Positions 1 through 59,290 of a stretch of 64,000 nt of DNA are shown here, piece after piece. Where the stretch lies: NCBI GenBank assembly GCA_938015295.1, contig CALLQB010000019.1, positions 448 through 64,447 of the forward strand, written 5' to 3'. A model generated the notes under the pieces. It worked only from the letters and a program-made list of their open reading frames with translations, ran no database searches and was not told where the DNA came from. The number at the start of each line of letters is the position of its first letter. Positions within the stretch are counted from its first letter, which is position 1. The translations under genes and the position numbers were made by a program. Origin of the DNA: an uncultured Acidimicrobiales bacterium (lineage in GTDB: Bacteria > Actinomycetota > Acidimicrobiia > Acidimicrobiales > SHLQ01).

Positions 1-360
1 TGGTAAACCAGCGATGGACTGCCTGTTGAAATCAGTTGGTTGTGATCCGCAAGCCGAAGCTTGTTGACCACAATCGAGTTTGCCTGAGCCAGAAGATTCT
101 GACTTCATTATTGTTTGTTTTGGGATTGCCTACGACCCGTTGGAGGTCGCAGACACTCAAATTCATTTCATGAGGGTCATTCGTAGCAGGAACTCTCTCC
201 TACGACGAATGCCCGCACTGGCTTTCATTCGTCCTCTATTCCGTTTTCAAGGAGCTGGTGAAATGACCGAAGCCATTTCGAGCACATTGCCGTTGTTGCC
301 AACCGCTTGGTGCTGCTCTGTGCCCTCCAATCCGCTGTGCGGCTTGTTGGGCGAGTCGTC
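1..360 (-). other. Probable 5' leader (external transcribed spacer) of an rRNA operon; 16S would begin left of the window
   Basis: Lower GC than flanking genes, no credible ORF, several hairpins (e.g. CATTCGT...ACGAATG near 178-211), a boxA-like element and two tandem promoters pointing left. It lies downstream of tyrS, a common rrn location in Actinobacteria. No mature rRNA sequence is visible. Confidence 0.75.
237..255 (-). promoter_or_regulatory. boxA-like rrn antitermination/processing element (GCTCCTTGAAAACGGAATA)
   Basis: Resembles TGCTCTTTAACA / actinobacterial GTTCTTTGAGAAC boxA and sits about 100 nt downstream of the promoter. Confidence 0.6.
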
Positions 361-388
361 AATGTATCAGCAATACATCCGACGTCAA
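361..388 (-). promoter_or_regulatory. Housekeeping-sigma promoter P2 (TTGACG-N16-TACATT)
   Basis: Near-consensus hexamers with the 16-nt spacer typical of rrn promoters, followed by a GC-rich discriminator (GACGACTCGCCC). Confidence 0.7.
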
Positions 389-419
389 GCACTGGAAGGT
401 CAAAAAAGACCGAAGTCAC

Positions 420-448
420 ACTTTACCCGGCTCGAAACTTGACCGCAA
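420..448 (-). promoter_or_regulatory. Upstream tandem promoter P1 (TTGCGG-N17-TAAAGT)
   Basis: Consensus-like hexamers at 17-nt spacing; tandem promoters are typical of rrn operons. Confidence 0.55.
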
Positions 449-500
449 CAGAGATTTCACACCCACATGGTAGAGGGCCCGGTGGCGACCTACCGTCGGG

Positions 501-2783
501 TTAGCCAACGTGCGAATGGGCAAGAAAAGCCTGCTCACCCGGCGTATCGAAGGTGGACCAGATGCCTTGCGAGCAGTTGTCGTCAGGCCGGAAAAGCCCA
601 GCACGGTTGTCGCACCAAGAATATCGGCGGGCATCACCAAATATTTGCCCGACGACTCCCGAACGGACCGCCGCCGCCACATCATCGGCCACCGCTTGGG
701 GGCCGACCGGGTTGCTGGGGTTGTGCAAACAGCCCCTCCAAGGCGGGGCGAGACGGTAATACCGAGACTCGGCCAGGATCACCGGTTTCGCCGACGCCGC
801 GACGACCGCCGACAGCTTTGCCTCCATGGTTGAGGCCGATTGACAATGCCCGGTCTGCACCGCCTGCACGTCGAGCCACGGTTCGTTGTTGAAAGCGAGG
901 TAATTCTCGCTGCCAGCGCCAGTGTGGAAAGCGATTGGCTGGCTCGCTCCCCCATCGCGCAACCCACGGGCCAACTCGCGGCTCGTTGCAAGTAGGCGCG
1001 AACCACACTCGGCTTCAGAGACATCGCCGCCAAGCACCCAATAGTCAAGCGCTGGCGCCGAAGCCCACCTCGTCGCAAGCGCCGCAGCGAACCCAGCCCC
1101 GTTCTGGTCGGTGACATTCGGGTTGTTGCAGGTGTTCGCTCGCGCCCACGCCACCACGACGGCCACTCGCAGGTTTCGCCAATCGGCTTGCTCGAGGATC
1201 CAACTCACCCGCTGCGCGTAGTCGTCAGACAGTTCGACAGTGCCGTTGCGCAGATACGCCACCTGATCGCTGCGTCCAGGCGGCACCGTTGCGTACGCAG
1301 CGCCGAAGGGCAGCAGGCTTATCCAAGTGCCGTCGAACCCAGCGGCGTCAAGGTGGTCGAGGTAGGCGAGGATCTCGTCGTTGGATGCCTTGTAGGGCAT
1401 CTCCCAGGCCGTGTCGTACTTCAACCCCCGTGGCGCCGCCGCGGCAGCGGGCCGTGGCGCAACCGGTGTCGTTTCGACCTCGGACGCACGTTCCGGAGCA
1501 GGAGGAGCAACGCTCGCGACACTTGCTGCACTCGCGGGCGTCGAAGGCCCCGTCGCCGACTGGCCGGTTACCTCGCATCGGGCCGCTGTGGTGTCGGTGC
1601 CGCCGAAAGGGCACAGCCCACGAAGATCCTTCGCCTCAACAGCGACCCAAGGGTCATAAGGGCCGAAATGAGGTTCGAGACGCCGCAGCGCCATCGCCGA
1701 GTCACCAGCACCAAGGATTCCCTGTGCGCAGCGTGCGCCGGCCACGTTCGAGCAACCCGAGACCCACGTGTCGAGTACGCCTCGATGCCAGGCTCCCAGC
1801 CAGCTCGCATGCATCGTCGTGCCACCCTGGACTTCTTGGCCACCGGCAGTCGAAACATCCGTTGACAGGTACCACGCCGAAGTATCGGCACCTTTTGGCA
1901 CGTCGAAAAACACGTTGTACTCGATCGAAGGCAACAACACCGGGTGCGTAGATGGGCACGCCGAGGCGTGAAAGCTCTCGAGCGGAAACGTCATATGGTG
2001 CTGATCGGGCGACGTGAGCGACACGCCGTCCCAACACGAGGGGAACCGCACCTGCACTTTCACGCTGCTAGAGCCGCCAAGCTCACCCGGGTCGCAGTAG
2101 GGAAAGGTTGCCGCTTGCGAAACGCTCAGGTCGTTATCTCCCCGTTCGCCGACATCGCAGCTCATTTCGATCTGTCGCAACGGCGATGACGCGTCTTGTG
2201 GTGCACCCGCCCACCGATTGCCGCTTGTTATCTCGAGGCCCGGCGGGAAGGGCTGTACCTGGGCGTCAACCGAGCCGTTGGTGCCGCCGAAGGTGTTGTA
2301 GTGGACGATGAAGTACGACGGCACGACTGCCCGCTGCCTGTCGTCAAAGACTGCCGGCATGGCATACACCGACCGGTCGAGCGGCCCGCCGCTGCAGGTC
2401 GATCCGCCACTATCGATTGCTGACCAGTATTTGGTTGCCGCATCAGCACCGGTGTTACCAAAGAACATCTGCAGCGGCGCACGCCCGGGCTGGTCGGGAA
2501 GCGCAAACGGATCGTCGTACGCGAAGTGGCTAAATCCGCACTCAACGCGAAAGAAGCGGTCGCCGCCGGGCAGGGCAATGCGGTCGTGACTCGACGCGTC
2601 GCCGAGGAAGGCAGCCACGTCGAGGTCGGCCGACGACGTTCGCTCGTCGTTCACCGAGAGTTGGGGGGTCCCACGAAACGTCGCAGAAGTATCGGCCGCC
2701 GATGCACGAACACCAAGTGTCAATGCAACAACAGCAAACAGCGCTGCGATGAACATGGGGGGAATGGCAAGCCATCTGTTCAT
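501..2783 (-). CDS. Secreted protein: N-terminal DUF1996 domain, Pro/Ala linker, C-terminal DUF4038/apiosidase (GH140)-like TIM barrel
   Basis: Signal peptide ending ASA-A; DUF1996-like motifs DDP..PG..FFGN, FPSCWDG, CPSTHPV; C-terminal motifs DTAW..Y..GF, WVLGGD, QTGH, KPVILAE. ATG at 2783 lies 6 nt after TAGTGT. Confidence 0.75.
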   Translation of the reverse strand: MNRWLAIPPMFIAALFAVVALTLGVRASAADTSATFRGTPQLSVNDERTSSADLDVAAFLGDASSHDRIALPGGDRFFRVECGFSHFAYDDPFALPDQPGRAPLQMFFGNTGADAATKYWSAIDSGGSTCSGGPLDRSVYAMPAVFDDRQRAVVPSYFIVHYNTFGGTNGSVDAQVQPFPPGLEITSGNRWAGAPQDASSPLRQIEMSCDVGERGDNDLSVSQAATFPYCDPGELGGSSSVKVQVRFPSCWDGVSLTSPDQHHMTFPLESFHASACPSTHPVLLPSIEYNVFFDVPKGADTSAWYLSTDVSTAGGQEVQGGTTMHASWLGAWHRGVLDTWVSGCSNVAGARCAQGILGAGDSAMALRRLEPHFGPYDPWVAVEAKDLRGLCPFGGTDTTAARCEVTGQSATGPSTPASAASVASVAPPAPERASEVETTPVAPRPAAAAAPRGLKYDTAWEMPYKASNDEILAYLDHLDAAGFDGTWISLLPFGAAYATVPPGRSDQVAYLRNGTVELSDDYAQRVSWILEQADWRNLRVAVVVAWARANTCNNPNVTDQNGAGFAAALATRWASAPALDYWVLGGDVSEAECGSRLLATSRELARGLRDGGASQPIAFHTGAGSENYLAFNNEPWLDVQAVQTGHCQSASTMEAKLSAVVAASAKPVILAESRYYRLAPPWRGCLHNPSNPVGPQAVADDVAAAVRSGVVGQIFGDARRYSWCDNRAGLFRPDDNCSQGIWSTFDTPGEQAFLAHSHVG

Positions 2784-33316: not shown

Positions 33317-33715
33317 CTAGGCGAACAGGCCTGATTTCGGCGCATCAGCTGCAGCGGCATCTTCAACCGCTTGCTCTGCAGCCGCCACCGCGGCGGCCTC
33401 GACCGCATCTGCTTCGGCCTGCACAACCGACTCGTCGAATTGCTGTGACATCGAGGTCGGGCCGCTACCACTTGCTGGCGGATGGCTCGCACCGGTCAGC
33501 GGCCGCATGACTTGCAGCCCGACAATGCCAAGGGGTTCGGCCAGGAATCCGTTGATCTCTTCCGCGTCGGTGATGCTGATCATGCCATTGGGCAGCGAAG
33601 CAACCTTTGCAGCGACGAACCAACCAAGAACTTCGTCGGCGCGCGCATGGACGACATCGCCGACCTTTACGTCAATGCCTCGAATGTGCACTACTTCTAT
33701 CTGTCCACGACTCAT
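33317..33715 (-). CDS. Hypothetical protein (small beta-rich domain plus Ala-rich tail)
   Basis: Fills the gap between queA and tgt on the same strand; no recognisable family. Confidence 0.65.
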   Translation of the reverse strand: MSRGQIEVVHIRGIDVKVGDVVHARADEVLGWFVAAKVASLPNGMISITDAEEINGFLAEPLGIVGLQVMRPLTGASHPPASGSGPTSMSQQFDESVVQAEADAVEAAAVAAAEQAVEDAAAADAPKSGLFA

Positions 33716-33722
33716 GTGTGAT

Positions 33723-33750
33723 GTAACGGCAGTTCAACAGCGCAACTTCA
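33723..33750 (-). promoter_or_regulatory. Weak sigma-28-like promoter (TGAAGTTG-N12-GCCGTTAC), 7 nt before ATG
   Basis: Partial match to TAAAGTTT-N11-GCCGATAA; same position relative to the start codon as two better sites. Confidence 0.35.
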
Positions 33751-37682: not shown

Positions 37683-38381
37683 CTAAGCCAGTAACTCGTC
37701 GCGAAGTGCATCGAAGAGCTGGTCAGCGCCGACCTCGATTGCCCCCGACACAGCGCTGAGGTGCGACTTCGCCTCGGCACGTTGTTCGGCTGTCAGCGCA
37801 AGCACGTCGGCAACCCCAAGCTGGCTGTTCTCGAGCTCGCTGGTCGCAAGCAGCACCGAACACTGAAACCTGGCGCCAGCTCGGGTTCTTCTCTGTGACA
37901 CACCAACGACTTTTTTGCCACCGGCGAGAACCTCGCCTGGTCCGACCGACGCAAAACATATGCGCCGGTTCCACTCGTTCTTTTCGAGAGCACCCCGGTG
38001 AACCTCGACCTCGCCGACACCGATGCGGCTAAGCACCGCCGACCAGACCTCACCCACCCAAACAAAGGCCCGCCCGACATCGTCGTCCCACAAATCATCA
38101 CCGGGCCGAATCACAAAGTCGACCCACAACATCGAGTCGTCGACCAGCACCGCTCCCCCGCCACTGCGGCGCCGAGTGACGCTAAGCCCTGCCGCATCGA
38201 TCGTTGCTTGGTCGAGCGTGTCGCCCGCTTGCGAACTGCCGAGCACAAGCGCCGGTGCGGTTGGCAACATCCGCCACAGCTCGCGTGCATGACCAGACGA
38301 AAATTCCAGCGGGTCGAGCGCGTGCAGCGACTCGACAGAGCCGCTCATGTCTCGCGTCAACCAACCGCGACGGTAGGTCAT
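37683..38381 (-). CDS. Lipoate-protein ligase A family catalytic domain
   Basis: LVLGSSQ, RRRSGGGAV, CF, GKKVVGVSQRR. Confidence 0.85.
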   Translation of the reverse strand: MTYRRGWLTRDMSGSVESLHALDPLEFSSGHARELWRMLPTAPALVLGSSQAGDTLDQATIDAAGLSVTRRRSGGGAVLVDDSMLWVDFVIRPGDDLWDDDVGRAFVWVGEVWSAVLSRIGVGEVEVHRGALEKNEWNRRICFASVGPGEVLAGGKKVVGVSQRRTRAGARFQCSVLLATSELENSQLGVADVLALTAEQRAEAKSHLSAVSGAIEVGADQLFDALRDELLA

Positions 38382-47494: not shown

Positions 47495-48169
47495 TCAACG
47501 CCCGACTTGTTCGGCTCCGGGATTTGCAATCATCACCGCATCGCCAATATCGAGTGGAATCTCTTCGGAGGTCGCTGGTTGGGGTTCCGCCGCGACGAGA
47601 ACAAGTCCGCCGACCGCGGTCAGACCAACGAAGATGCCGGCGATAGGCACCACAAGTCGACGACGAATTTTCGCACCAACCGCTTCCACGACGTTGGTTT
47701 GTTCCGTCATGAGCGAGTTCAGCTCGTCCTCGACAGCAGAACGTTCGGCCTCAAGTGCATGGGCGAGGACGCCAACATCGAGCTGGCGGATCGGGATTTC
47801 CGAGCCGTTCGGAAGGTCGCGCAATGCGTAGACGATCGCCAAGTATTTTGCGAGCACCTGGTCACTCGGCGAATTGGCGATAACCGAACGGTGCTCGCCA
47901 AGCGAAAGAAGCCCCTCTTCAAGGTCGATGATCAGTTCTGATCGCTGTGGTGCAAGCGCGTTTGCGTCGATGTCATACAGCGAGGCGACGACCGCTATTG
48001 TCTGCTCGTCGAGCGGGGCTCGCCCTTGCTCGATGTCTTCGAGGAGAGCGATCGAAAGTCCTCCGGGTTCGCGGCTGAGTTCGGTCAGCGATAACGAACG
48101 ATCGACACGTCGGTTCCGAAGAAGACGGCCGAGACGGACAGGCGGCACGAGAAGCGCGGCATCAGACAT
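47495..48169 (-). CDS. XRE/RodZ-like HTH protein with a C-terminal TM helix
   Basis: LGRLLRNRR...LSLTELS...LEDIEQG; basic RRR followed by a hydrophobic helix near the C-terminus. Confidence 0.7.
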   Translation of the reverse strand: MSDAALLVPPVRLGRLLRNRRVDRSLSLTELSREPGGLSIALLEDIEQGRAPLDEQTIAVVASLYDIDANALAPQRSELIIDLEEGLLSLGEHRSVIANSPSDQVLAKYLAIVYALRDLPNGSEIPIRQLDVGVLAHALEAERSAVEDELNSLMTEQTNVVEAVGAKIRRRLVVPIAGIFVGLTAVGGLVLVAAEPQPATSEEIPLDIGDAVMIANPGAEQVGR

Positions 48170-48175
48170 CGCGTT

Positions 48176-48205
48176 CTATCGGCTACCACCGCGTCATTGT
48201 TAGCG
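48176..48205 (-). promoter_or_regulatory. Sigma-28 (FliA/WhiG)-like promoter TAAC-N15-GCCGATAG, 6 nt before ATG
   Basis: Close match to TAAA-N15-GCCGATAA. Confidence 0.6.
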
Positions 48206-48206
48206 A

Positions 48207-48980
48207 CTAAGCGCTGCGGTTCAGTGGCGTCGACTGCGCCTGTACTTCAGGGTGAACGACCGGCCGAGCTCTGCTGAGCCGGTCGCGGACTCCCCACCAG
48301 GTGACCAAAGAAAATGCTTCGACCACAATGCGATTGGACATCTTGGATTCGCCGAGTTCGCGGTCGCGAAACGAGATCGGCACCTCGGTGATTTTTCCGC
48401 CAAGCATGTGAATCCGGTAGGCCATCTCGACCTGGAAGCCGTAGCCATCGGCTCGGACCCGGCTGAGATCGATCTCGTCGACAATAGCGGCCGAATAGGC
48501 CCGGTAGCCCGAGGTCGCGTCGACGGGTTCGAAGCCCAGAAGCGCTTTGGCGTAGAGGTTGCCCCAGCGCGAGAGGAGCCGCCGGTACAGCGACCACGAG
48601 GGGATCGAGCCACCGGGAACATAGCGACTGCCAATGGTGAGCGCTGCTCCCCCACGCACTCCGGCAACGATGTCGGGGAGAGACGCCGGATCATGAGAGA
48701 GATCCGAATCCATCTCGACCAAGATGTCGAAGTTCTGCTCGAGACCCAACCGAAATCCGAGACGATATGCACTTCCAAGCCCCTGCTTGCCCGACCGGCG
48801 AATGACCCGGATCTGGCCAAGCTCTTCGGCTAGCTCGTCGCCAAGGTCGGCTGTGCCGTCGGGGCTGCCGTCGTCGATAACGAGAATTTCGGCCGTCGGA
48901 ATCGCTGCCCGTGCCGAACGCAGCACCGCCTCGAGGTTCTGGGCCTCGTTATAGGTCGGGAGAATAAGCAGCGTTCGCAC
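48207..48980 (-). CDS. Polyprenol monophosphomannose synthase (GT2)
   Basis: LPTYNE, DDGSPDGT, GLGSAY, MDSDLSH, GSRYVPGG, GYGFQVE. Confidence 0.92.
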   Translation of the reverse strand: MRTLLILPTYNEAQNLEAVLRSARAAIPTAEILVIDDGSPDGTADLGDELAEELGQIRVIRRSGKQGLGSAYRLGFRLGLEQNFDILVEMDSDLSHDPASLPDIVAGVRGGAALTIGSRYVPGGSIPSWSLYRRLLSRWGNLYAKALLGFEPVDATSGYRAYSAAIVDEIDLSRVRADGYGFQVEMAYRIHMLGGKITEVPISFRDRELGESKMSNRIVVEAFSLVTWWGVRDRLSRARPVVHPEVQAQSTPLNRSA

Positions 48981-49075
48981 TTCAACTCTTTCGGCAGATT
49001 CTCTTGCGTTTCGAGCGATACATGACACCTTAGCCCGGTGACTCAACTGCTCTGTGGCTCGCTAGTGTTTCCGTC

Positions 49076-49429
49076 GTGACCGAGAAGTCCGAACCACCAG
49101 GCGCCCCGACATCGATTCCAGACCTCCAGAGGCAACCGGCTCTCCAGAGTGCAGCTCCGCCCGTTGGGGCCCGAATTCTTGCCGTCGCCTCCATTGTTCT
49201 CAGCGGCGTTTGCGGCGGCTTGATCGGTTATGGCATCACCAATCTCCAATGCGACGACGGCTGTAGTGGCCTTGCCACCGCCGTTGGGTCGGCGGCAGCG
49301 ATTCTTGCGGCCATCGGCGTCGCAGTCGTTGCGGTGCTCGCGCTGCGGGCGATGGCCGAATGGAACGCTCAGCAACGGGTCGAAGACCTTGCCAAAACAA
49401 CCGATTCGACGCAGAAGCACCAGCAGTGA
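49076..49429 (+). CDS. Small two-TM hypothetical protein
   Basis: Two hydrophobic helices flanking a CxxxC loop, LRAMAEW; stop overlaps the suhB start. Confidence 0.75.
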   Translation: MTEKSEPPGAPTSIPDLQRQPALQSAAPPVGARILAVASIVLSGVCGGLIGYGITNLQCDDGCSGLATAVGSAAAILAAIGVAVVAVLALRAMAEWNAQQRVEDLAKTTDSTQKHQQ

Positions 49430-50250
49430 CCTCTAAACCGCCCACTCCCCCCGAGCTCCTTCATCTTGCCGAGGGACTTGTCGCAACGATTGCCCCACAG
49501 TTGGTCGCCGCACGCGCAGGCCAAGCTGACGGCACCGGGTCAATCGGCGTGTCGACCAAGAGCACCGCCAATGATCTGGTCACCGAAATGGACCAATGGA
49601 CCGAACGCACCTTGGTCGACGGGCTTCTCGGAGCTCGTCCTGACGATGGGGTGCTCGGCGAGGAAGGGTCCTCGGTTGCTGGCACCAGTGGGGTTCGTTG
49701 GGTCATCGACCCGATCGATGGCACCACAAACTTCTATTACGACATCGTTGGCTATTCGGTCTCGGTGGCTGCACAGATCGACGGGGTCACGGTCGCCGGG
49801 GTCGTCGCCGATCCCGTACGTGGCGAGATCTTCACGGCGACGCTAGGGGGCGGGGCGTTCCGCAACGGCCAACCAATCACCGCGTCGATCAAAGACGACC
49901 TCGGCACTGCGCTGGTCGCGACGGGCTTCAACTATGACGTCGGGCTGCGCACCAACCAAGCTGCGGTACTCACCACGCTGCTCCCCCGAGTGCGAGATAT
50001 TCGCAGGATGGGCGGTGCGGCGCTCGACATTTGTCTGGTCGCGTGCGGTCGTGCCGATGCTCACTACGAGGCCGGGCTGTCGATTTGGGATGTCGCTGCA
50101 GCCGCGTTGATCGCCACTGAAGCCGGAGCGAGACATACCGACATCGATGGCAAGGTTGACGATCCGGGAATCGCGGTATTTTCGAGCGCAGCTCTCCATG
50201 ATGACTTCGTCGCTCTCCTCCACCAGTCAGGTGCGAGAGCACGGGTCTGA
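49426..50250 (+). CDS. suhB: Inositol monophosphatase family protein
   Basis: DLVTE.D, GEE, WVIDPIDGTTNF, RRMG.AALD, WDVAAA. Confidence 0.9.
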   Translation: MTSKPPTPPELLHLAEGLVATIAPQLVAARAGQADGTGSIGVSTKSTANDLVTEMDQWTERTLVDGLLGARPDDGVLGEEGSSVAGTSGVRWVIDPIDGTTNFYYDIVGYSVSVAAQIDGVTVAGVVADPVRGEIFTATLGGGAFRNGQPITASIKDDLGTALVATGFNYDVGLRTNQAAVLTTLLPRVRDIRRMGGAALDICLVACGRADAHYEAGLSIWDVAAAALIATEAGARHTDIDGKVDDPGIAVFSSAALHDDFVALLHQSGARARV

Positions 50251-50353
50251 GCCGTTTGGGCGCCGCCGACACCGGTTCGGGGCCCTGAGCGACCGAGTCT
50301 CGCAGACAGATTGTTTCGGTTGGTGCTTCCTTCGACACCACTGAGGTGCCACC

Positions 50354-51043
50354 ATGGCCTTTGTGGAAACCCGAATTCTGATGGTCGAAGACGATGACGG
50401 CATCCGGACGTCGGTCAAACTTGGCCTCGAGGACGAGGGCTGGGAAGTAGTCGAAGCCGACAACGGCGAAGACGCGCTCGGCCTCTTTTCCCAAGCACCA
50501 ACCGACGTCGTCCTGATCGACATCATGTTGCCGGGAATCGACGGATTCGAAGTATGTCGATCGGTTCGGCGCACAAGCGATGTGCCGATCATCATGATCA
50601 CCGCTCGTGCTGACACCCACGATGTGGTCGCTGGCCTTGAAGCCGGCGCCGACGACTACCTCACCAAACCCATCGCCCCCAAAGAACTCTCGGCCCGTAT
50701 TCGGGCGTTGCTTCGGCGAGCACGAACCACCGACGCCACGAGCAGCCACCTCACCTTTGGCGATCTCGAGATCATCGCTGACGAGGGCGTCGTTCGCAAG
50801 GCCGGCGAAGAGGTCCACCTCACAAAAACCGAGTTCCGTCTGCTGGTCGAACTCGCCGCCACACCCGGCCGCGTGTACTCGCGCGAAGTTCTTCTTGAAC
50901 GGGTCTGGGAGTACGGCTACTTCGGCGACGGCAGACTGGTCGATGTACATATCCGACGTCTGCGCACCAAGATTGAGTCCGATGCTGCGAACCCACAACA
51001 CGTGGTCACGGTTCGAGGGCTTGGCTACAAGCTGCAGACCTGA
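50354..51043 (+). CDS. OmpR/PhoB-family response regulator (MtrA/AfsQ1-like)
   Basis: EDD, DIMLPG, GADDYLTKP, VDVHIRRLR, TVRGLGY. Confidence 0.95.
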   Translation: MAFVETRILMVEDDDGIRTSVKLGLEDEGWEVVEADNGEDALGLFSQAPTDVVLIDIMLPGIDGFEVCRSVRRTSDVPIIMITARADTHDVVAGLEAGADDYLTKPIAPKELSARIRALLRRARTTDATSSHLTFGDLEIIADEGVVRKAGEEVHLTKTEFRLLVELAATPGRVYSREVLLERVWEYGYFGDGRLVDVHIRRLRTKIESDAANPQHVVTVRGLGYKLQT

Positions 51044-51085
51044 GCTTCGCCGAGTCCAGGCACCCAGTGAACTGAGCACGAAGCG

Positions 51086-52498
51086 ATGACCCCCTTTCGA
51101 CGCCTTGGCTTGGGTGCTCGAATTAGCGTCGCGTTTGCGCTCGGGGGTTTGGTGCTTTCGGCGTTCCTTGCTTTCGCGACGCTCGGTCTGACCCGCGAGG
51201 TCCTCTTGCGTCAGCGCGAGAACGCCGCCCGCGACCTGGCGTTAAACAATGCACAGTTGGTACAAAGCCAGCTGACCGAAGAGACCGACCCCTCCGAGCT
51301 CATCAATATTCTCGGTGCCTTGCAGACCAGTTCGTCACGGCCGCTGCTCCAGTTTCAAGAGGTCTGGCAAGGCGATGGTTCAGGCGGGTTTACCCAAGAA
51401 AGCGTGCCTGCGGGGCTGCTTGCTCGGGTCACGTCGGGAGGGGCTGGGGTGCTTCGAACACAACTCGACGACGAGTTAGCGATCGTTTTTGGTGTGCGGT
51501 TGCCTGAAGACAACGCCGCCTACTTTGAAGCGGCCTCGCTCGAAGAGACCGAAAGCAACCTACGCACACTTCAGGTCATCCTCTTCGGCGCCGCGGTTGC
51601 CACAACCGTTCTTGCCGCGCTCTTGGGTCGATGGGCGACAAGTCGCATGCTTCAACCGCTCAGCGACGTGTCCGACGCGGCCGAGGCGATCGCTGGCGGC
51701 CGTCTCGACACCAGGCTCGACCAGCAAGTCGACCCCGAACTTGCATCGCTCACCAGCTCGTTCAACGACATGGTCGGTGCCCTCGAACTCCGGATTGAGC
51801 GCGATGCCCGCTTCGCTTCAGAGGTAAGCCACGAGTTGCGCTCACCCCTCATGACCCTTGCGGCGTCGATGGAAGTGCTCGAAAACAACCGAGACCACAT
51901 GCCGGTGCGGGCCGCAACCGCCGTTGACCTGATGTCGACCGACATCAGCCGGTTCCAGACGCTGGTTCAGGATCTGTTGGAGATCTCGCGTTTCGATGCG
52001 GGAAGTGCGGCTTTGCAACTCGAACCGCTGGCTGTCGGCGAATTTGTCAGACAGGCAACCGCCATGACCGATACCACCGCCATTGTCGAACTACGGCCAG
52101 GGACTGAAGAAACGGTGATCAACGCGGACAAACGCCGGCTCGCTCAAGTCATGTCGAACCTCATCGAAAACGCCCGGAAATACGGTGGCGGAGCAACCCG
52201 CATCGAGGTCTCCGCTACCAACGAAGTCGTCAGAATAGCGGTCGACGACGCAGGCCCAGGCGTTCCTCTCGATGAGCGAGCGGTGATTTTCGACCGGTTC
52301 TCTCGCGGCAGTGCAGGAGGTCGTCGCGGCGCCGATACCGGTGTTGGTCTTGGTCTCGCGTTGGTCGATGAACATGTTCGACTCCACGAGGGCCAGGTGT
52401 GGGTCACCGACCGACCCGACGGCAAAGATGGCGCCCGCTTTATCGTCGAGTTGCCGATCGAAACCCCGCTCGACGCAACCGGGGAAGGTGCAACATGA
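51086..52498 (+). CDS. HAMP-domain sensor histidine kinase
   Basis: Two TMs, HAMP, SHELRSPL, NLIENA, DDAGPG, GLGL. Confidence 0.95.
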   Translation: MTPFRRLGLGARISVAFALGGLVLSAFLAFATLGLTREVLLRQRENAARDLALNNAQLVQSQLTEETDPSELINILGALQTSSSRPLLQFQEVWQGDGSGGFTQESVPAGLLARVTSGGAGVLRTQLDDELAIVFGVRLPEDNAAYFEAASLEETESNLRTLQVILFGAAVATTVLAALLGRWATSRMLQPLSDVSDAAEAIAGGRLDTRLDQQVDPELASLTSSFNDMVGALELRIERDARFASEVSHELRSPLMTLAASMEVLENNRDHMPVRAATAVDLMSTDISRFQTLVQDLLEISRFDAGSAALQLEPLAVGEFVRQATAMTDTTAIVELRPGTEETVINADKRRLAQVMSNLIENARKYGGGATRIEVSATNEVVRIAVDDAGPGVPLDERAVIFDRFSRGSAGGRRGADTGVGLGLALVDEHVRLHEGQVWVTDRPDGKDGARFIVELPIETPLDATGEGAT

Positions 52499-53232
52499 GA
52501 CCGCTCAATCGAGTGTTGCGCCTAGTGCTCTGGTTCACAGCGATTTCTTTGATTGCGGCCACCTGCGGTGTTTCTGCCGAGCAGACTGTCCGTCCAATTG
52601 ATGACGAGCAACTTCCTGAGCGGCTTCGGCCAAGCGAGCCAGCGCCAACTACGACTAGTGAGCCCCAACGCGGTTTCCCGGTCACGATCTTCTTGTTCAG
52701 CCAAGAGGGCGATGACCCGGCGCAGCTCGTGCCTCGCACACGGACCGTTCCGCAACCGAATGCTGAGAGCGCCTTGCGTGCTCTGCTAGCGGCCGACCCA
52801 ACTGAAGAGGAAGAAGCGCTCGGCCTTCGAACCTTCTTTGGTCCGGCAGCCTTGGCTGAGGAGCCAATCGAACTTCTCAGCGCCCAAATTCGCCAAGATC
52901 TACTCCGCATCGACCTTTCGGGCCCACCGGTGATCGAGGGTGTACTCGGCCCGCTGCCCTGGGCGCAGCTCGTGTTTACCGCAACCCAACAGTTTCGCGA
53001 AGGTCAGGCCCTGCGTCGTGTGCGATTCCTCAGCGACGGAACTCCCGTGTCACTACAGGTGCAAGACGGCGATAGCCGGGCCGGGGTGCCAGTGACTCGC
53101 GACGAGTACTCCCGATACGACCCAGAGGCCCCCGACGAGCCGAGCACGACCACGTCTGAGACGCCGAGGCCGCCCGGAGATTTGCCCGAAACGTTCGACG
53201 GCACGCAGCCACCGACGACCGGTCCGAACTAG
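52495..53232 (+). CDS. GerMN-domain lipoprotein (LpqB-like accessory protein)
   Basis: Lipobox-like AATC; LVPRTR, LRALL..P..EE..GLRT, AQLVFTAT; overlaps the kinase stop. Confidence 0.8.
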   Translation: MRPLNRVLRLVLWFTAISLIAATCGVSAEQTVRPIDDEQLPERLRPSEPAPTTTSEPQRGFPVTIFLFSQEGDDPAQLVPRTRTVPQPNAESALRALLAADPTEEEEALGLRTFFGPAALAEEPIELLSAQIRQDLLRIDLSGPPVIEGVLGPLPWAQLVFTATQQFREGQALRRVRFLSDGTPVSLQVQDGDSRAGVPVTRDEYSRYDPEAPDEPSTTTSETPRPPGDLPETFDGTQPPTTGPN

Positions 53233-53237
53233 GCGGT

Positions 53238-54617
53238 CTATCGGCGGCGGCGTCCCGCAGATGACCGACGGCTTCGCCCGGCGCTGCTGCGCCGCCGCGG
53301 CAACCGGTCGTTGCGAGGCAACGTTTGCTGTTGTCGCGGCATCGGCCAATTACGCCAGTCGACATCGATCGGCCTGCCGCTACTACGGGTCAAGATTCGG
53401 AAAAGATCGGGCAAGGCCAAGCCAATGCCTCCGTATCCCAGTGGTGCCCTCGCTGCCGGAACCCGACGTTGACCGACCTGCACCAAACGAGGATCAGGAA
53501 GTTCTCCGGCCTCGAGTCGCCTTGCGCACTCTCGACAAATGAGCACATCGAGGTCCTGTGCACCCGTTTCGATCGACGCCGGCACGGTGCCTGGCCGATG
53601 GTCAGGGTCGAAGAAACAGGTGCCTCGCCGCGCTCGCACTCGTTCGGTTCGATTGTCGGAGGTCTGGGGCTCGACCCACGGGTCGCTGGTGACCGGCTCG
53701 GCCGGCGGCGTGCGCCCTTCCAGCTTCGCTTCGACCCAATCAAATCGCCACCGAAGAGCGTCGACTCGGTCGTTGAGTTCGGCGAGGTCGGGGCCATTGT
53801 CGACACGGTCGACCAGGTCGCTGACCTCGTTGTATTCGATGCTCGCCTCTTGGAAACGCAGCTGAAGGTCATCATCGGAGCTGAGCGTGACACGGTCGTT
53901 GAGGTCGTAAACCATCTGTGCAATAGCGCTGACTTGGTTGTTGAGCTCTGCTTTGGCTTTCTCGAGGTTCTCTTCGCGACGCTTGGTCGTTTGTCGCTTG
54001 CTGTACAGCGCAGCGCCGCCGACACCAGCAGCGCCGACACCCAACAAAATCAGCCCGGTCGGAGCGCCGCCAGAGTCGGTGTTGCTGCTCGTTTCGCCAG
54101 CGGTCGTGGTGTTACCGGAATCGTCCTGCGTGGACTCGGTGCTTGTTCCTGATCCGCCCGTAAGGAAACTAACGACCGCCTCTGTGCCAGAAAGCGCATC
54201 GCCTTCGAAACGGTCGAGCGCTTGGTTGCTCCGGCCCGATGAATACTCGGTGCTCGCCAGACCGAGCTCGCCGGGTGTCACCACCAGAATCGTGTGAAGA
54301 TCGGCGGTGCCGACCGTCTGTAACAGCGAGTCGGCGAAGTCTTGGGCTGAGCCATCGACTTCGCTGGCCAGCACGACCGAGCCGACGCCTTGCCGACGAG
54401 CGTCGGTTGCCGTGCCGCGATAGTCGCCTTCGCTTACTTCGGCCCCCGGCTCGACGTACCAGCCTTGGCCGTCAAGAGCATCGGCCACCTCCGACGTGAG
54501 ATCTTGTGCCGATGCCGGGCCTGCCGCGAGCCCGACGAGGAACATTGCGAGAAGGGCAAACGGGGCGAGTGGCGCGAATGCAGCAAGAAAGAGCGGTCGG
54601 CACGGAGATGGCTTCAT
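53238..54617 (-). CDS. Membrane protein: exported TPM-like N-domain, TM, coiled coil, C-terminal Cys/His motif
   Basis: Signal peptide ending ASA-Q; TM LILLGVGAAGVGGAALY; CFFDPDH...CREC. Confidence 0.75.
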   Translation of the reverse strand: MKPSPCRPLFLAAFAPLAPFALLAMFLVGLAAGPASAQDLTSEVADALDGQGWYVEPGAEVSEGDYRGTATDARRQGVGSVVLASEVDGSAQDFADSLLQTVGTADLHTILVVTPGELGLASTEYSSGRSNQALDRFEGDALSGTEAVVSFLTGGSGTSTESTQDDSGNTTTAGETSSNTDSGGAPTGLILLGVGAAGVGGAALYSKRQTTKRREENLEKAKAELNNQVSAIAQMVYDLNDRVTLSSDDDLQLRFQEASIEYNEVSDLVDRVDNGPDLAELNDRVDALRWRFDWVEAKLEGRTPPAEPVTSDPWVEPQTSDNRTERVRARRGTCFFDPDHRPGTVPASIETGAQDLDVLICRECARRLEAGELPDPRLVQVGQRRVPAARAPLGYGGIGLALPDLFRILTRSSGRPIDVDWRNWPMPRQQQTLPRNDRLPRRRSSAGRSRRSSAGRRRR

Positions 54618-54625
54618 AGTTTCCC

Positions 54626-55654
54626 TTAGGCGAAAAATTGTTCAGCAACGCTGTATAACTCGTCGGAAACGTATTTTAGTTCCGCGACACATTCGGTGAG
54701 CGGCCGCGGTGAGATCGACGCCGCTCGCAAGGCAACCATGTGGCCGAACGCTCCATCGTGGACAGCGTCAATTGCTGCAACACCGAACCGAGTACTGAGA
54801 ACCCGGTCGAACGCTGTCGGGGTGCCGCCTCGTTGCACATGGCCAAGCGTGGTGACACGCGTTTCGAGGCCCGTGCGCGATTCGATCTCTCGGGCGAGAA
54901 TTGCGCCGATACCGCCAAGACGAATGTGGCCGTACTCGTCGATCTCCTCAGTCGGAAGGTCGAGCGTTCCCTCAAGAGGCTTTGCCCCCTCGGCAACCAC
55001 AACCACCGACGCGTACCGGTTGTTGTCGTGGCGACGCACCAGCGACTCACACACTGCGGCGATATCAAAGGGCCGTTCGGGAATGAGTGTCATCGTTGCT
55101 CCGCCAGCGATGCCCGCCCACGTAGCGATGTGGCCAACATGGCGGCCCATGACCTCGCAGATCATGACTCGGTCGTGTGATTCGGCAGTGGTGTGGAGCC
55201 GGTCGATCGCGTCGGTGGCAATGGCCACTGCGGTGTCGAACCCAAAAGTGCGTTCGGTGCCGCCAATGTCGTTGTCGATAGTTTTTGGCACACCCACGAT
55301 CGGAATCCCCTGCTGATACACCGCAAGCGCGGCCGACAGTGTGCCTTCGCCACCGATCACAATCAGCGCGTCGAGCTCGTTTGCTGCCATCGTGGCTTTG
55401 ACGCGCTCGATCCCGTCGTCGTACATAAACGGCTGGATTCTCGACGTTCCCAAGATGGTTCCACCACGAGGAAGAATCCCCCTCGCAACCTCTATCGAGA
55501 GTTCCATGAACTCGTTGTCGAGCACGCCACGCCATCCATCGAGAAAGCCGATGACATGGTCGCCGTAGTGTTTTTCGGCCTTGCGGACGACGCCTCGAAT
55601 CACGGCGTTGAGCCCTGGGCAGTCGCCGCCACCGGTTAGTACACCGACATTCAC
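54626..55654 (-). CDS. pfkA: ATP-dependent 6-phosphofructokinase
   Basis: LTGGGDCPGLN, GGTILGTSR, GGEGT, PKTIDND, EVMGR, LGHVQRGG; GTG start at 55654. Confidence 0.95.
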   Translation of the reverse strand: MNVGVLTGGGDCPGLNAVIRGVVRKAEKHYGDHVIGFLDGWRGVLDNEFMELSIEVARGILPRGGTILGTSRIQPFMYDDGIERVKATMAANELDALIVIGGEGTLSAALAVYQQGIPIVGVPKTIDNDIGGTERTFGFDTAVAIATDAIDRLHTTAESHDRVMICEVMGRHVGHIATWAGIAGGATMTLIPERPFDIAAVCESLVRRHDNNRYASVVVVAEGAKPLEGTLDLPTEEIDEYGHIRLGGIGAILAREIESRTGLETRVTTLGHVQRGGTPTAFDRVLSTRFGVAAIDAVHDGAFGHMVALRAASISPRPLTECVAELKYVSDELYSVAEQFFA

Positions 55655-55793
55655 GCGTTGATTCCTTCCCGAAGAGAAGCTCCTGATACTAGCCGTCCTG
55701 ACGCGCTGCACTGAAGGTTTGCGCTCGGGATCGCCTCCAAGCGGTCTGGTTTGTCTGCGATACAGTTGCACACGGAATTCAGGAAGGGTTTTC

Positions 55794-57275
55794 ATGGGAA
55801 TTGTTGTTTCGATCGATGCCGGCACAACAGGCGTCCGTTCATTCGCTGTCAACGAGGCCGGGCAACCGGTTGGTTGGGCGTATCGCGAATTTCCGCAGTA
55901 CTTCCCCACCCCTGGATGGGTGGAGCACGATGCGAACGAGATCTGGACGGCGATCCTGGCAACACTCACCGAACTAACGGCAAAGATCGATGAACCAATC
56001 GCCGCCATCGGCATCACCGATCAACGCGAAACGGTTGTCGTCTGGGACAAGAACACTGGCCAACCACTGCATAACGCGATCGTGTGGCAGGACCGTCGGA
56101 CCGCCGAGCGCTGCGATCAACTCGAGGCCGAAGGTCACCTTCCCCTGGTTCGCTCGACCTCGGGACTTGTCCTTGATCCATACTTTTCGTCGAGCAAACT
56201 CGAGTGGCTATTTTCCGAAGGCGGCGTTTCTTCCGATGCCGACACCGCCTTTGGTACCGTTGATTCTTGGGTGCTGTGGAATCTCACGGGTGGCGCGGTG
56301 CACGCGACCGAGCCGTCGAATGCCAGCCGAACCATGTTGTACGACATTGAAGCCATGCATTGGTCAGACGACCTCACCTCGCTGTTCAGTATCCCGCGCA
56401 CCTGCCTTCCCGAAGTGCTTCCGTCGAGCGGGCGATTCGGCGTGACGACATCGGGGCTCCCTGTTGCGGCCGGCATCCCTATTAGCGGCATGGCTGGCGA
56501 TCAGCAAGCTGCACTGTTTGGCCAAGCATGCTTTGAACCAGGTATGGCGAAGAATACGTACGGCACTGGTTCTTTTGTGCTCATGAACGTGGGTGGAACC
56601 TGCCCAAAGCCCGTCGAGGGGCTGCTGACTACGGTTGGTTGGCAGTTGGCCGATGGTTCGGTCACCTACGCTCTCGAAGGCGCCGTGTTTGTCACTGGTG
56701 CTGCGATTCAATGGCTACGCGATGGTCTCGGCATCATCGAAGACGCATCCGAGATCGGCCCGCTCGCTGCCCAGTGCGACTCCACTGGCGGCGTGTACGT
56801 CGTGCCGGCGTTCGCCGGCCTTGGCAGCCCGTGGTGGGACCCGTATGCACGCGGAACGATTGTTGGCATGACGCGAGGTACCGGACGTCCAGAGATCGCG
56901 CGAGCAGTTGTCGAGTCGATGGCGTATCAGTCTCGTGACGTCGTCGATGCTATGAGCGCAGCATCGGGTCATCAGGTTCGCGATCTGCGGGTTGATGGTG
57001 GTGCCTCGGTGATGGACCTTTTGCTCCAGTTCCAAGCCGACCAACTTGGGGTCACCGTGCTGCGGGCGAAAGTGCAAGAGACCACGGCGCTCGGGTCTGC
57101 CTATCTTGCTGGCCTCGCTGAGGGTGTCTGGGCATCACCCGATGATCTGGCCCAGTACTGGGCGTCCGATGGCGAGTTCGCGCCAGCGCCAAATTCGCGC
57201 CAGGCCGCCGAGGCTGGCTATGGCGATTGGCGACGAGCTGTTGGACGAAGCCTGGGGTGGGCGAACGACTCCTAA
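55794..57275 (+). CDS. glpK: Glycerol kinase
   Basis: IDAGTT, GWVEH, QRET, WQDRR, GDQQAALFGQ, KNTYGTG, VDGG. Confidence 0.96.
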   Translation: MGIVVSIDAGTTGVRSFAVNEAGQPVGWAYREFPQYFPTPGWVEHDANEIWTAILATLTELTAKIDEPIAAIGITDQRETVVVWDKNTGQPLHNAIVWQDRRTAERCDQLEAEGHLPLVRSTSGLVLDPYFSSSKLEWLFSEGGVSSDADTAFGTVDSWVLWNLTGGAVHATEPSNASRTMLYDIEAMHWSDDLTSLFSIPRTCLPEVLPSSGRFGVTTSGLPVAAGIPISGMAGDQQAALFGQACFEPGMAKNTYGTGSFVLMNVGGTCPKPVEGLLTTVGWQLADGSVTYALEGAVFVTGAAIQWLRDGLGIIEDASEIGPLAAQCDSTGGVYVVPAFAGLGSPWWDPYARGTIVGMTRGTGRPEIARAVVESMAYQSRDVVDAMSAASGHQVRDLRVDGGASVMDLLLQFQADQLGVTVLRAKVQETTALGSAYLAGLAEGVWASPDDLAQYWASDGEFAPAPNSRQAAEAGYGDWRRAVGRSLGWANDS

Positions 57276-57306
57276 GGGCCTGCAATTGGGCCTTGGCGCC
57301 TGCAGG

Positions 57307-59253
57307 CTAGGTAGACGCGTCGGTAAACCGGAGAACGGTTGCGGCGTCGCCCAGGCTGCTCGCCCAATCGGTGATGAGCCGATCGGGGTTGAACCAGATC
57401 GTCTGGACCCCGTCGGAAAGCTCGAGAAATTCGACCAACACCGCTGTTTGCGCTGCGATATCGAGAACACCTAGGGGCCGGTCGAGCACCGCTGGAAGTG
57501 GCGAAGATGTGCCTTCTCGCAAGGCGTCGTAGTGGCTACGGACCAAGCCCGCTGCCTGCACAGCATCGACCGCTACCCATTCGCTCGGCTTCTCGGCCTT
57601 GTCGAGCTGGTCGGTCTTTACCCGGACCATGACCCGCAGACGCTCAATTTGTAGTTCGAGAATGTCGATCTGTTCGGTGGCCCTCGACAGGTCGATCGTG
57701 GCCCGCATATGCCGGTCGAATGACGCTTCGGCTGCCTCAAGGATGCTGATCATCAGATCGATCCGCGGATCGCTCTCGCTGAGAGTTTCACCACTATCGG
57801 CGAGCGACAACGTCTGGTCGATCCGAGCGATTTCTGCCTCAACTGACCGGCCTGCTGCTTCGAGGTCGGCAACGGTTGCCTGTTGATTCTTTGCGGCGGT
57901 CTGCCAATCGACGGCGAGCCGCGTCAGTTCCTCTGCGTTGAGCTTGTCGAGGTCTTCGAACCCGAGAATCTCAAGCACTTCAGCGAGCCGCTCACGGGCT
58001 TCGGGAAGTTGATCTGCTACCTCCGCTGGCCGGATTCGATGCGAGCGCAGCGCTGCTTCGAGGTCTGGCACCTCGCCGACCATCTCTGCGGCCCGTTCCG
58101 CAATGGCATCGAGTTCGGCCGCTGCTGCCGCAAGCTCCTCATCGGATTCGAGTTGGCTGTTCAGCGCTTCCCATTTGCGTTGAGCGTCTTGATATTCGCG
58201 TCGAGCTTGGGCGACGTCTCGTCCGGCCCCAGCGTTGGTTGAGTCGAATGCTCCTTCCAACATGAACTCCGCCCACGTGGCGAAACCGAGTCGGTCAAGA
58301 ATTCGTTGCTCGGCCCTTCGGGCGACAATGAGTTCGGGCAGGTAGATGCTTGCTCGACCAGTGACCCGTGCTTCGGCTTCGACTACGCGGTCGTGAGCGT
58401 CTTCAAGCATCGCAATGTCGGCTGGCGACACTTTCGGCTTTGCGCTCGACTTCTCGCTCACCGCTTGGTAATTCCGCCGAGCGACGCTGAGTCGCGTCTG
58501 TAGTTGGTCGACGTCACCATAGGTTGTGCGAAGGCGCAGATCGGCGTCGTCGAAGCGTGCTCGAGCGCGCGACCAATCGTCGGCGAGCGCTTCGGCTACA
58601 AGCGATGGCGACTCAGTCGTGATGGTGGCGTCGCGGATCGCACCCAAAACGTCGCGCATCACTTGACTGCCTTCGGCCGAGAACCAGGCAGTTCGTGCAT
58701 GAAATTCCTTGCCAAGTTCGCTAAGGCGGTCTCGTCGCTCGCGCAGTCGATCGACAGCACCAAGGGCGCCCTGACCCGGAGCAAGCGCTAGCTGCGACTC
58801 GAGGTCGGCCACACCAGCGGCCACGTCGGCGAGGCTCCGAACGGCATTGCGGTCGAGGCGATGGTTCGCTGCTTCGAACGCATCGCTCAGTTCGCTCCGG
58901 AACAGCTTGGCCTCAATCGAAGCTTCCCCTGCGGCTTCGACTTCGGCAGCCAACGCGCGGCGCGCCGCCTCGTCGGTCTTTATGACCGGGGTCAGAAAGC
59001 TTTCTTCGCCGAGAACCGGAACAGCATCCTCGGCGCCGGGAGGCACCGGGGCCACGCCGTGCACGGCGATTTCTGTATCGCCGACGGCGACGACCGTCTC
59101 GAGGTCGATCGGTTGGGCGGTAAGCAGCGCCTGAAGAGCGGTCACGAGTTGCAACTGGTCGTCGGGCGCGAGGCCGGTGATTACCGTAAGTTTCGGGTGA
59201 AACTCCAACGGCGGTTTCCCGGGATCGGGATTCGCAATCTGCACGACTCTCAT
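57307..59253 (-). CDS. Long coiled-coil protein with degenerate SMC/Rad50/YhaN-like head motifs
   Basis: N-terminal LEFHPKLTVITG lacking GKS/T; long heptad-rich middle; C-terminal LPAVLDRPLGVLD...QTIWF. Confidence 0.75.
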   Translation of the reverse strand: MRVVQIANPDPGKPPLEFHPKLTVITGLAPDDQLQLVTALQALLTAQPIDLETVVAVGDTEIAVHGVAPVPPGAEDAVPVLGEESFLTPVIKTDEAARRALAAEVEAAGEASIEAKLFRSELSDAFEAANHRLDRNAVRSLADVAAGVADLESQLALAPGQGALGAVDRLRERRDRLSELGKEFHARTAWFSAEGSQVMRDVLGAIRDATITTESPSLVAEALADDWSRARARFDDADLRLRTTYGDVDQLQTRLSVARRNYQAVSEKSSAKPKVSPADIAMLEDAHDRVVEAEARVTGRASIYLPELIVARRAEQRILDRLGFATWAEFMLEGAFDSTNAGAGRDVAQARREYQDAQRKWEALNSQLESDEELAAAAAELDAIAERAAEMVGEVPDLEAALRSHRIRPAEVADQLPEARERLAEVLEILGFEDLDKLNAEELTRLAVDWQTAAKNQQATVADLEAAGRSVEAEIARIDQTLSLADSGETLSESDPRIDLMISILEAAEASFDRHMRATIDLSRATEQIDILELQIERLRVMVRVKTDQLDKAEKPSEWVAVDAVQAAGLVRSHYDALREGTSSPLPAVLDRPLGVLDIAAQTAVLVEFLELSDGVQTIWFNPDRLITDWASSLGDAATVLRFTDAST

Positions 59254-59260
59254 CGCAGAT

Positions 59261-59290
59261 CCATCGGCCGTGGCCAGCCGATTTATAGCG
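59261..59290 (-). promoter_or_regulatory. Sigma-28-like promoter TATA-N15-GCCGATGG, 7 nt before ATG
   Basis: Same geometry and upstream CGCTAnnAAT as the site at 48176-48205. Confidence 0.5.

Follow-up and report, generated by a model that had tools for sequence, protein, structure and literature searches.

A predicted WhiG-type sigma-28 regulon and a candidate membrane-anchored c-di-GMP receptor of the BldD type in an uncultured Acidimicrobiales bacterium

In a 64,000-nt stretch of DNA from an uncultured Acidimicrobiales bacterium (contig CALLQB010000019.1, positions 448 to 64,447; hereafter the window), three minus-strand genes encoding proteins of 224, 648 and 132 amino acids (aa) share an upstream motif of the sigma-28/WhiG type with leaderless geometry. 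Our reading, which we regard as reasonably probable as a whole, is that these sites are used by the sigma factor WhiG when cyclic di-GMP (c-di-GMP) is low, and that the 224-aa product is a membrane-bound c-di-GMP receptor of the BldD type. The window sites very probably belong to a sigma-28 regulon of about 100 promoter-like sites, and on profile evidence the 224-aa protein is almost certainly a BldD homologue. The WhiG regulon is of a known type, in a new class, and the membrane-anchored half-site BldD family appears to be a new version of a known c-di-GMP receptor.

Results

A sigma-28-type motif with leaderless geometry recurs across the genome

The consensus of FliA/WhiG (sigma-28) promoters is TAAA-N15-GCCGATAA. 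A first-pass annotation of the window had drawn attention to two sequences of this kind, upstream of the 224-aa and 648-aa genes, and to a weaker third before the 132-aa gene. If an alternative sigma factor were at work, it had argued, one should find positional enrichment before start codons, a sigma-28 gene in the genome and conservation of the motif upstream of orthologues; all three were found. Both of the stronger sequences stand on the minus strand where they had been placed (Table 1), and AGGA, GGAG and GAGG are absent from the 25 nt before the two starts, in keeping with the claim that a Shine–Dalgarno sequence is lacking. The third scores only 9.5 yet is conserved in position in orthologous loci, and the TGA of its −35 element doubles as the stop codon of the upstream gene, queA.

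Table 1. Features of the window, and the second sigma-28 gene elsewhere in the host genome (G000)
Feature	Position	Strand	Details
Predicted sigma-28 (WhiG) promoter 1	48167..48205	−	TAAC-N15-GCCGATAG; −35 TAAC 48202-48199; −10 48183-48176, first G 48183, ATG 14 nt on; matrix score 18.6
224-aa BldD paralogue	47495..48169	−	XRE HTH ~10-72; BldD-like C-terminal domain ~78-155
Codons 117-131, R-D-L-x8-R-Q-L-D	47777..47821	−	From alignment to host BldD and PDB BldD
Predicted sigma-28 promoter 2	59251..59290	−	TATA-N15-GCCGATGG; −35 TATA 59287-59284; −10 59268-59261, first G 59268, ATG 15 nt on; matrix score 18.4
648-aa Rad50/SMC-like protein	57307..59253	−	Split N/C head; antiparallel coiled coil ~95-554
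Predicted sigma-28 promoter 3	33713..33750	−	TGAA-N16-GCCGTTAC; first G 33730, ATG 15 nt on
132-aa protein	33317..33715	−	Conserved N-terminal domain of ~75 aa; Ala/Glu-rich variable tail
Further predicted sigma-28 site	48978..49017	−	−10 GCCGAAAG at 48995, GTG 15 nt later; score 16.0
Second sigma-28	G000:C124:3822-4712	−	TIGR02479 match; conserved sigma-28 site upstream

Genes of the host genome (5.0 Mb, 60.7% G+C, 94.7% complete) were called with our own dicodon script, and a two-box (bipartite) matrix was built from the resulting 3075 upstream regions, sites being accepted at a score of at least 14.5. The motif obtained genome-wide, kCTCAA-N15/16-G[CT]CGA[TA], is sharply defined in its spacing: at a score of at least 15, 67 regions matched with a spacer of 15 nt and 40 with one of 16, against 1–10 at each of 14 other spacings. 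Splitting the contigs into halves gave 58 and 33 matches at the same two spacers against 4–13 at other spacings, a test that is only partly held out because the training sites had been chosen with the full matrix. The motif is also enriched at a set distance from the start codon: an in-frame start lies 13–18 nt after the −10 element at 61 of the 115 sites that pass the threshold, compared with 110 of 1095 hexamers that match the −10 box only, and 59 genes have a site at an offset of 14–16 nt versus 3–9 at eight other offsets.

For orthologous loci we counted the best site 13–18 nt before an in-frame start and took the expectation from shuffles; these counts include the loci of the host genome itself, and the relatives are not independent of one another. 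The promoter position is kept in 26/30 loci for the 224-aa gene (2.3 expected), in 14/15 for the 132-aa gene (1.6 expected) and in 14/20 for the 648-aa gene (1.5 expected), 13 of the last being credible and one (L134, score −2.5) a chance match. Neighbouring control genes reached a score of 12 in 1/12 loci (SRPBCC) and 0/7 loci (queA). Both boxes persist across orthologues while the spacers between them are unconserved. The same orthologous promoter can have an N15 spacer in one species and an N16 spacer in another; a division of the N15 and N16 sites into two sigma-specific regulons, which we considered, is thus unsupported.

The further predicted site in Table 1, missed in the first-pass annotation, precedes a GT2 glycosyltransferase gene (48207-48980) lying directly upstream of the BldD paralogue gene, and scores at least 12 in 4/14 loci, all in the host genus. 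Elsewhere in the window, a sigma-28-type site with a score of 18.1 is found about 164 nt upstream of a lipoate-ligase-family gene (37683-38348, minus strand).

Predicted targets centre on c-di-GMP turnover, signalling and the cell surface

The first genes at 93 of the 115 sites were scanned with Pfam. They include 8 GGDEF/EAL proteins, 7 kinases or receivers and about 16 enzymes of polysaccharide synthesis, sulfation or acylation, together with 3 RTX-repeat proteins, a 2828-aa repeat protein, a sortase, CpaB and an L,D-transpeptidase; 21 have no Pfam family. GGDEF genes are enriched about 15-fold, a site scoring at least 14.5 being found at 10 of 34, whereas 108 of the other 4142 genes have one (P 1.6e-8). 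Among surface genes, sites precede 2/7 priming glycosyltransferases (uncorrected P 0.015), 2/14 sulfotransferases (P 0.058) and 4/35 RTX-repeat genes (P 0.016), and the CpaB gene that heads the Tad cluster on contig C17 has a site scoring 15.3.

Some further observations concern these target classes. Eight sites scoring at least 14.5 are spread over the Tad pilus cluster and a polysaccharide cluster on the same contig (G000:C17:8503-35998), the latter comprising a flippase, a DegT aminotransferase, an acyltransferase and a priming glycosyltransferase. Three predicted targets match a c-di-GMP phosphodiesterase model below its cut-off (C48:10257-13664, C44:80056-84069 and C59:7515-8627), and two of these are fused to tandem-95 repeat domains. 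RTX calcium-binding repeats occur in at least 35 genes of this 5-Mb actinobacterial genome, which has 34 GGDEF genes in all.

The small cytoskeletal regulon originally envisaged is therefore replaced by some 100 predicted promoters, mainly at genes for c-di-GMP turnover, two-component signalling and surface or polysaccharide functions. Judged by its predicted members, this regulon fits the known WhiG pattern of cyclase and phosphodiesterase targets and not a cell-shape programme. The idea of such a programme retains the presence of two MreB genes and the failure to detect RodZ in the genome; it loses ground in that neither mreB gene has a sigma-28 site and the 93 scanned targets include few genes for cell shape. 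The second MreB gene (G000:C8:25180-26184, minus strand) lies on a contig other than that of the C11 copy. Nor would the type of programme be undescribed, as had been suggested, since WhiG regulons beyond flagella and sporulation have already been reported (Rubrobacter, PMC8325347; bioRxiv 2026.01.14.699351).

The host encodes WhiG, RsiG and a second sigma-28 factor

Two host genes pass the FliA/WhiG cut-off (TIGR02479). One, on contig C10, also lies above the WhiG cut-off NF004935 and is identical to Streptomyces venezuelae WhiG at the c-di-GMP contacts K57, G61 and R62 and at the RsiG contacts T235, L236, Y239, E240 and L242 (contact residues from bioRxiv 10.64898/2026.01.14.699351). RsiG is present as well, with an E value of 4.6e-20 to PDB 6pfj and an exact motif 1 (E-x3-S-x2-R-x3-Q-x3-D), and among the 41 genomes searched a WhiG-type sigma factor was found in all 41 and RsiG in 38. 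The other sigma-28 factor (contig C124) differs from S. venezuelae WhiG by G61F, R62Q and four of the five sigma4 contacts, and so falls outside the set of factors with RsiG and c-di-GMP contacts. A site scoring at least 12 stands upstream of its gene in 17/21 loci, against 0.3 in shuffled sequence, and it is possible that this factor acts as a sigma relay. It is widespread among relatives; no flagellin was found in the 94.7%-complete host genome, and both of its T2SSE ATPases look Tad-type.

Two candidate sites near the regulators themselves were set aside. One falls within the coding sequence of xerC, 167 nt ahead of whiG, and was given no weight; the other, an apparent leaderless site before rsiG (score 12.0), overlaps a Shine–Dalgarno sequence and a probable start codon, and leaderless geometry is seen there in 1/30 orthologues. 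A search of the upstream regions for the BldD-box pattern TNAC-N5-GTNA gave no spacing enrichment.

The 224-aa protein belongs to a predicted membrane family of BldD paralogues

The 224-aa protein had first been described as RodZ-like, on account of an N-terminal helix-turn-helix (HTH) and a membrane segment. Profile searches and a profile–profile match identify it instead as a BldD paralogue. A homologue search returned 628 representatives at E ≤ 0.001, and a profile of 95 sequences had the BldD DNA-binding domain as its best PDB match (E 3.3e-10) and also found the sequences of five BldD C-terminal domains, with E values between 9e-4 and 4e-3. PF21179 (BldD-like_C) matches 36 of these 95 members at E ≤ 0.05, and comparison with a profile of 33 canonical Acidimicrobiia-type BldD sequences gave a probability of 98.6 over 148 columns. 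Neither an HTH_25-type HTH above cut-off nor a RodZ_C domain was found in the 224-aa protein. It is not the canonical copy: its NF050110 score of 17.8 bits falls short of the cut-off (250), and the better match in the host is a canonical BldD on contig C25 with the full RxD-x8-RxxD signature. A tree splits BldD from the membrane family (100/100), although we claim no order of descent because it lacks a reliable root. The AlphaFold2 model has a mean predicted local distance difference test (pLDDT) score of 79.6.

What sets the family apart is a half-kept c-di-GMP signature. The 224-aa protein retains the equivalents of BldD R114, R125 and D128 and has Leu in place of D116. In residue counts from the best 150 matches, of which 149 rows have letters at the motif, the first three are present in 149/149 and a D116 equivalent in 0/149, as against the full signature in 120/120 canonical homologues. 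A single transmembrane helix is predicted at about residues 172-194, with a short predicted outside tail. A hydrophobic helix is present in 143/150, with a mean of 3.7 Lys/Arg before and 0.5 after it and conserved glycines at 178 and 187, and the tail carries an HExxH motif in 32/150. The HTH keeps its structural residues (R21 in 144/150, E47 in 148/150), but its recognition-helix positions 40-48 vary freely where those of BldD are invariant, and its net charge is −3.2 compared with +6.8 in BldD.

The membrane family was found in 23/24 genomes of the same family, in 43/301 genomes of the class (E ≤ 1e-25) and in 7/401 of the phylum, two of those outside the class, and members are likely to have been missed since few candidates were scored per genome. 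The R..R..D residues are kept in 20/20 wider class members. Besides canonical BldD, the host carries two further paralogues of the membrane type and a soluble copy that has diverged, and a site lies 14–16 nt before the start of all four non-canonical genes (scores 18.6, 10.1, 9.8 and 15.1, two of them weak); canonical bldD has no such site (score 2.5).

Several members have features of their own. The two other membrane paralogues of the host lie in tandem (G000:C7:43237-45812, minus strand) and end in an outside, zincin-like HExxH domain (AHELGH). The soluble copy (G000:C35:33275-33838, minus strand; site at 16 nt from the start codon) has R..R..D but no D116 and is the genome's sole HTH_25 match. 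Five members of about 660–670 aa combine a Pro-rich linker with a C-terminal domain that weakly resembles PF06439; the helix is absent from both of the two that were aligned, and all five keep the promoter geometry. One further membrane paralogue (genome G704, 334-2202, minus strand) has a long tail with a flagellin-like segment at its end (Flagellin_N, E 7.7e-6).

The 648-aa and 132-aa proteins

The structural model of the 648-aa protein (mean pLDDT 82) combines a head split between the two ends with an antiparallel coiled coil that connects the halves, an architecture resembling that of the Rad50/SbcC/SMC ATPases. Its look-alikes were Rad50/SbcC/SMC clusters (score 0.93) and the top Foldseek row was Rad50 (E 1.4e-3), with no fold match at E ≤ 0.001 and with VIA-align covering the coil only; no significant match came from sequence searches of Pfam, NCBIfam and PDB. 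By the usual definitions of the Walker and signature motifs, Walker A, the ABC signature and the CxxC hook were each found in 0/18 aligned rows and the Walker B DE in 1/18; unlike those ATPases, the protein has a conserved segment of its own close to the apex of the coil (residues 283-330). The earlier description as a motif-dead SMC-like protein stands as regards architecture and the missing ATPase motifs, with homology to SMC/Rad50 a possibility. The protein, found in 20/41 genomes, looks in its model like an ATPase-dead Rad50/SMC protein and would serve as a structural scaffold.

The 132-aa protein, previously called an orphan, has homologues in 19/24 genomes of the same family and 21/41 overall. 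It has no Pfam or NCBIfam match; a weak lead (PDB E 0.05, Atlas scores below 0.9) suggests that its N-terminal domain is possibly a small beta-barrel of the SH3/Tudor type.

Discussion

The predicted regulon resembles known WhiG regulons in its sigma-28 consensus, in the presence of WhiG with RsiG, in its predicted cyclase and phosphodiesterase targets and in its non-flagellated host. Three WhiG targets are known in S. venezuelae and 12 promoters have been mapped in Rubrobacter (PMC8325347; bioRxiv 2026.01.14.699351), and the predicted targets that are most widely distributed are cyclases and phosphodiesterases (bioRxiv 2026.01.14.699351). It differs in its size of about 100 predicted promoters, about half of them with leaderless geometry, and in having polysaccharide, surface and Tad genes, BldD paralogues and a second sigma-28 among its predicted targets. 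RsiG had been noted in 3/4 Acidimicrobiales (PMC8325347) and bldD in Acidimicrobium (PMC4255298); the main text of the 2026 survey (bioRxiv 2026.01.14.699351) does not mention Acidimicrobi- taxa, leaderless genes or polysaccharide. We found no description of an Acidimicrobiia WhiG regulon or of membrane-anchored BldD paralogues in a literature search that left most subscription papers outside its reach.

RsiG holds WhiG only when it is loaded with c-di-GMP. A fall in c-di-GMP would hence release WhiG to read the predicted sites and switch on cyclases and phosphodiesterases, kinases, and surface and polysaccharide genes, and it would also induce the BldD paralogues and, as a relay, the second sigma-28, which is without RsiG contacts. 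WhiG is probably the main reader of the sites. We consider it unlikely, though deserving of attention, that most of them are read by the second sigma-28, in which case the regulon would depend on c-di-GMP only indirectly. That factor is common in relatives, its RsiG and c-di-GMP contacts are altered, the conserved site before its gene could reflect autoregulation, and the −35 logo CTCA resembles the WhiG1 consensus of bioRxiv 2026.01.14.699351. On the other hand, the switching between N15 and N16 at the same promoter means that spacing does not delimit two regulons, and the host WhiG is highly similar to that of S. venezuelae.

With regard to the 224-aa protein, an informative comparison is the D116A mutant of BldD (PDB 5TZF/5TZG), which binds one c-di-GMP dimer via RxxD with a dissociation constant of 1.6 uM and a 2:2 stoichiometry, dimerizes weakly and is a functional null in Streptomyces in vivo (PMC5499655). 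The membrane family shares with BldD (PF21179; NF050110) the order of an XRE HTH followed by the C-terminal domain, as well as the R114, R125 and D128 residues, and it looks like a natural version of the D116A state. It departs from BldD in lacking D116, in the added transmembrane helix and outside tail, in an acidic and variable HTH, in a predicted beta-hairpin that replaces the first helix of the C-terminal domain, and in that up to three copies, preceded by a WhiG-type promoter, accompany canonical BldD. By this analogy the 224-aa protein quite likely binds c-di-GMP, taking up a dimer at RxxD, and its transmembrane helix would take over from the lost motif 1 in providing proximity. The acidic and variable HTH makes signalling by protein contact at the membrane, instead of operator binding, the most likely mode of action, and we lean, less firmly, towards the protein not being a DNA binder.

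A competing possibility keeps the same regulon and makes the membrane paralogue a working tethered transcription factor, dimerized on operators by c-di-GMP and helix pairing, in the manner of the membrane-tethered factors ToxR and CadC. We find this doubtful. The HTH fold is intact, with its structural residues kept, and it matches XRE domains at a Z score of about 9; in distant members of the class the HTH is basic, and the HExxH tail of some members could take outside input. However, the free variation of the recognition helix and the negative net charge of the HTH argue against operator binding. A search of the upstream regions for the BldD-box pattern TNAC-N5-GTNA gave no spacing enrichment.

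Less probable still, and in our view improbable, is that the 224-aa protein works like RodZ, its HTH binding MreB, and changes cell shape together with the dead SMC-like coiled coil. The topology of an N-terminal XRE-like HTH and a single transmembrane helix is indeed that of RodZ, the host has two MreB genes with no RodZ detected, the RodZ-type HTH_25 model matches 17/95 members, and an HTH that does not bind DNA would fit. Against this, a C-terminal domain of the BldD type, its c-di-GMP motif invariant, stands between HTH and helix, RodZ_C is missing, the sequence profile prefers BldD, and the RodZ chain 2wus is absent among 43 PDB matches at E ≤ 1; the mreB genes are without sites and few cell-shape genes occur among the 93 scanned targets. 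That the window sites are chance matches or a terminator hairpin is barely credible, since, for all that GCCGAT alone occurs 8544 times in the genome and site 2 holds a 6-bp inverted repeat (ATCGGC...GCCGAT), the enrichment is specific to spacing and start offset, both boxes are conserved while the spacer is not, and a hairpin is not evident in orthologous spacers.

It should be noted that several points weigh against our preferred combination of WhiG-read sites and a membrane-bound BldD-type receptor. As the gene calls are our own, some start codons will be wrong; about 15 of the 115 sites are expected to be false, and the enrichment of surface genes is modest, with P values that are uncorrected. 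Motif 2 of the host RsiG has Phe for Gln, and the two sigma-28 factors share a consensus type and are indistinguishable by sequence. The window protein alone gives no PF21179 match, its transmembrane helix is not modelled by AlphaFold2 (pLDDT below 50 there), and fold searches matched the HTH only, with BldD (Z 9.1) and RodZ (Z 8.3, root-mean-square deviation 3.0 over 71 residues) tied, as were many XRE domains. Among the 20 wider class members, promoter geometry is present in 12 and a helix above threshold near residue 170 in 12, two aligned members having none, and the HTH is basic in some distant members. Finally, the loss of function of D116A in Streptomyces means that a receptor with half a site would have to be dimerized by other means, for which the helix is our candidate.

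BldD represses whiG in Streptomyces (PMC4255298). For the Acidimicrobiia a complete circuit can be imagined, which we put forward as speculation and would not expect to hold in full. They may run a unicellular BldD–WhiG–RsiG circuit in which WhiG-induced half-site paralogues catch c-di-GMP dimers at the membrane and either trap BldD in half-loaded, inactive heterodimers or are freed by the HExxH paralogues, with feedback that would lock a surface or developmental state through the second sigma-28 as relay and the ATPase-dead SMC-like protein as scaffold.

Streptomyces development has two c-di-GMP switches, BldD and RsiG–WhiG, and their role in unicellular, deep-branching actinobacteria is a question raised by earlier work (PMC8325347; PMC4255298). 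The sites described here give a concrete, conserved list of predicted targets with which that question can be approached in the Acidimicrobiales. The RxD-x8-RxxD signature has been said to be perfectly conserved among BldD proteins (PMC5499655, 2017); the membrane family would constitute a systematic exception, keeping only the half that binds first. It may provide a candidate c-di-GMP receptor family across the class, in which a natural sequence matches the mutant of a solved structure.

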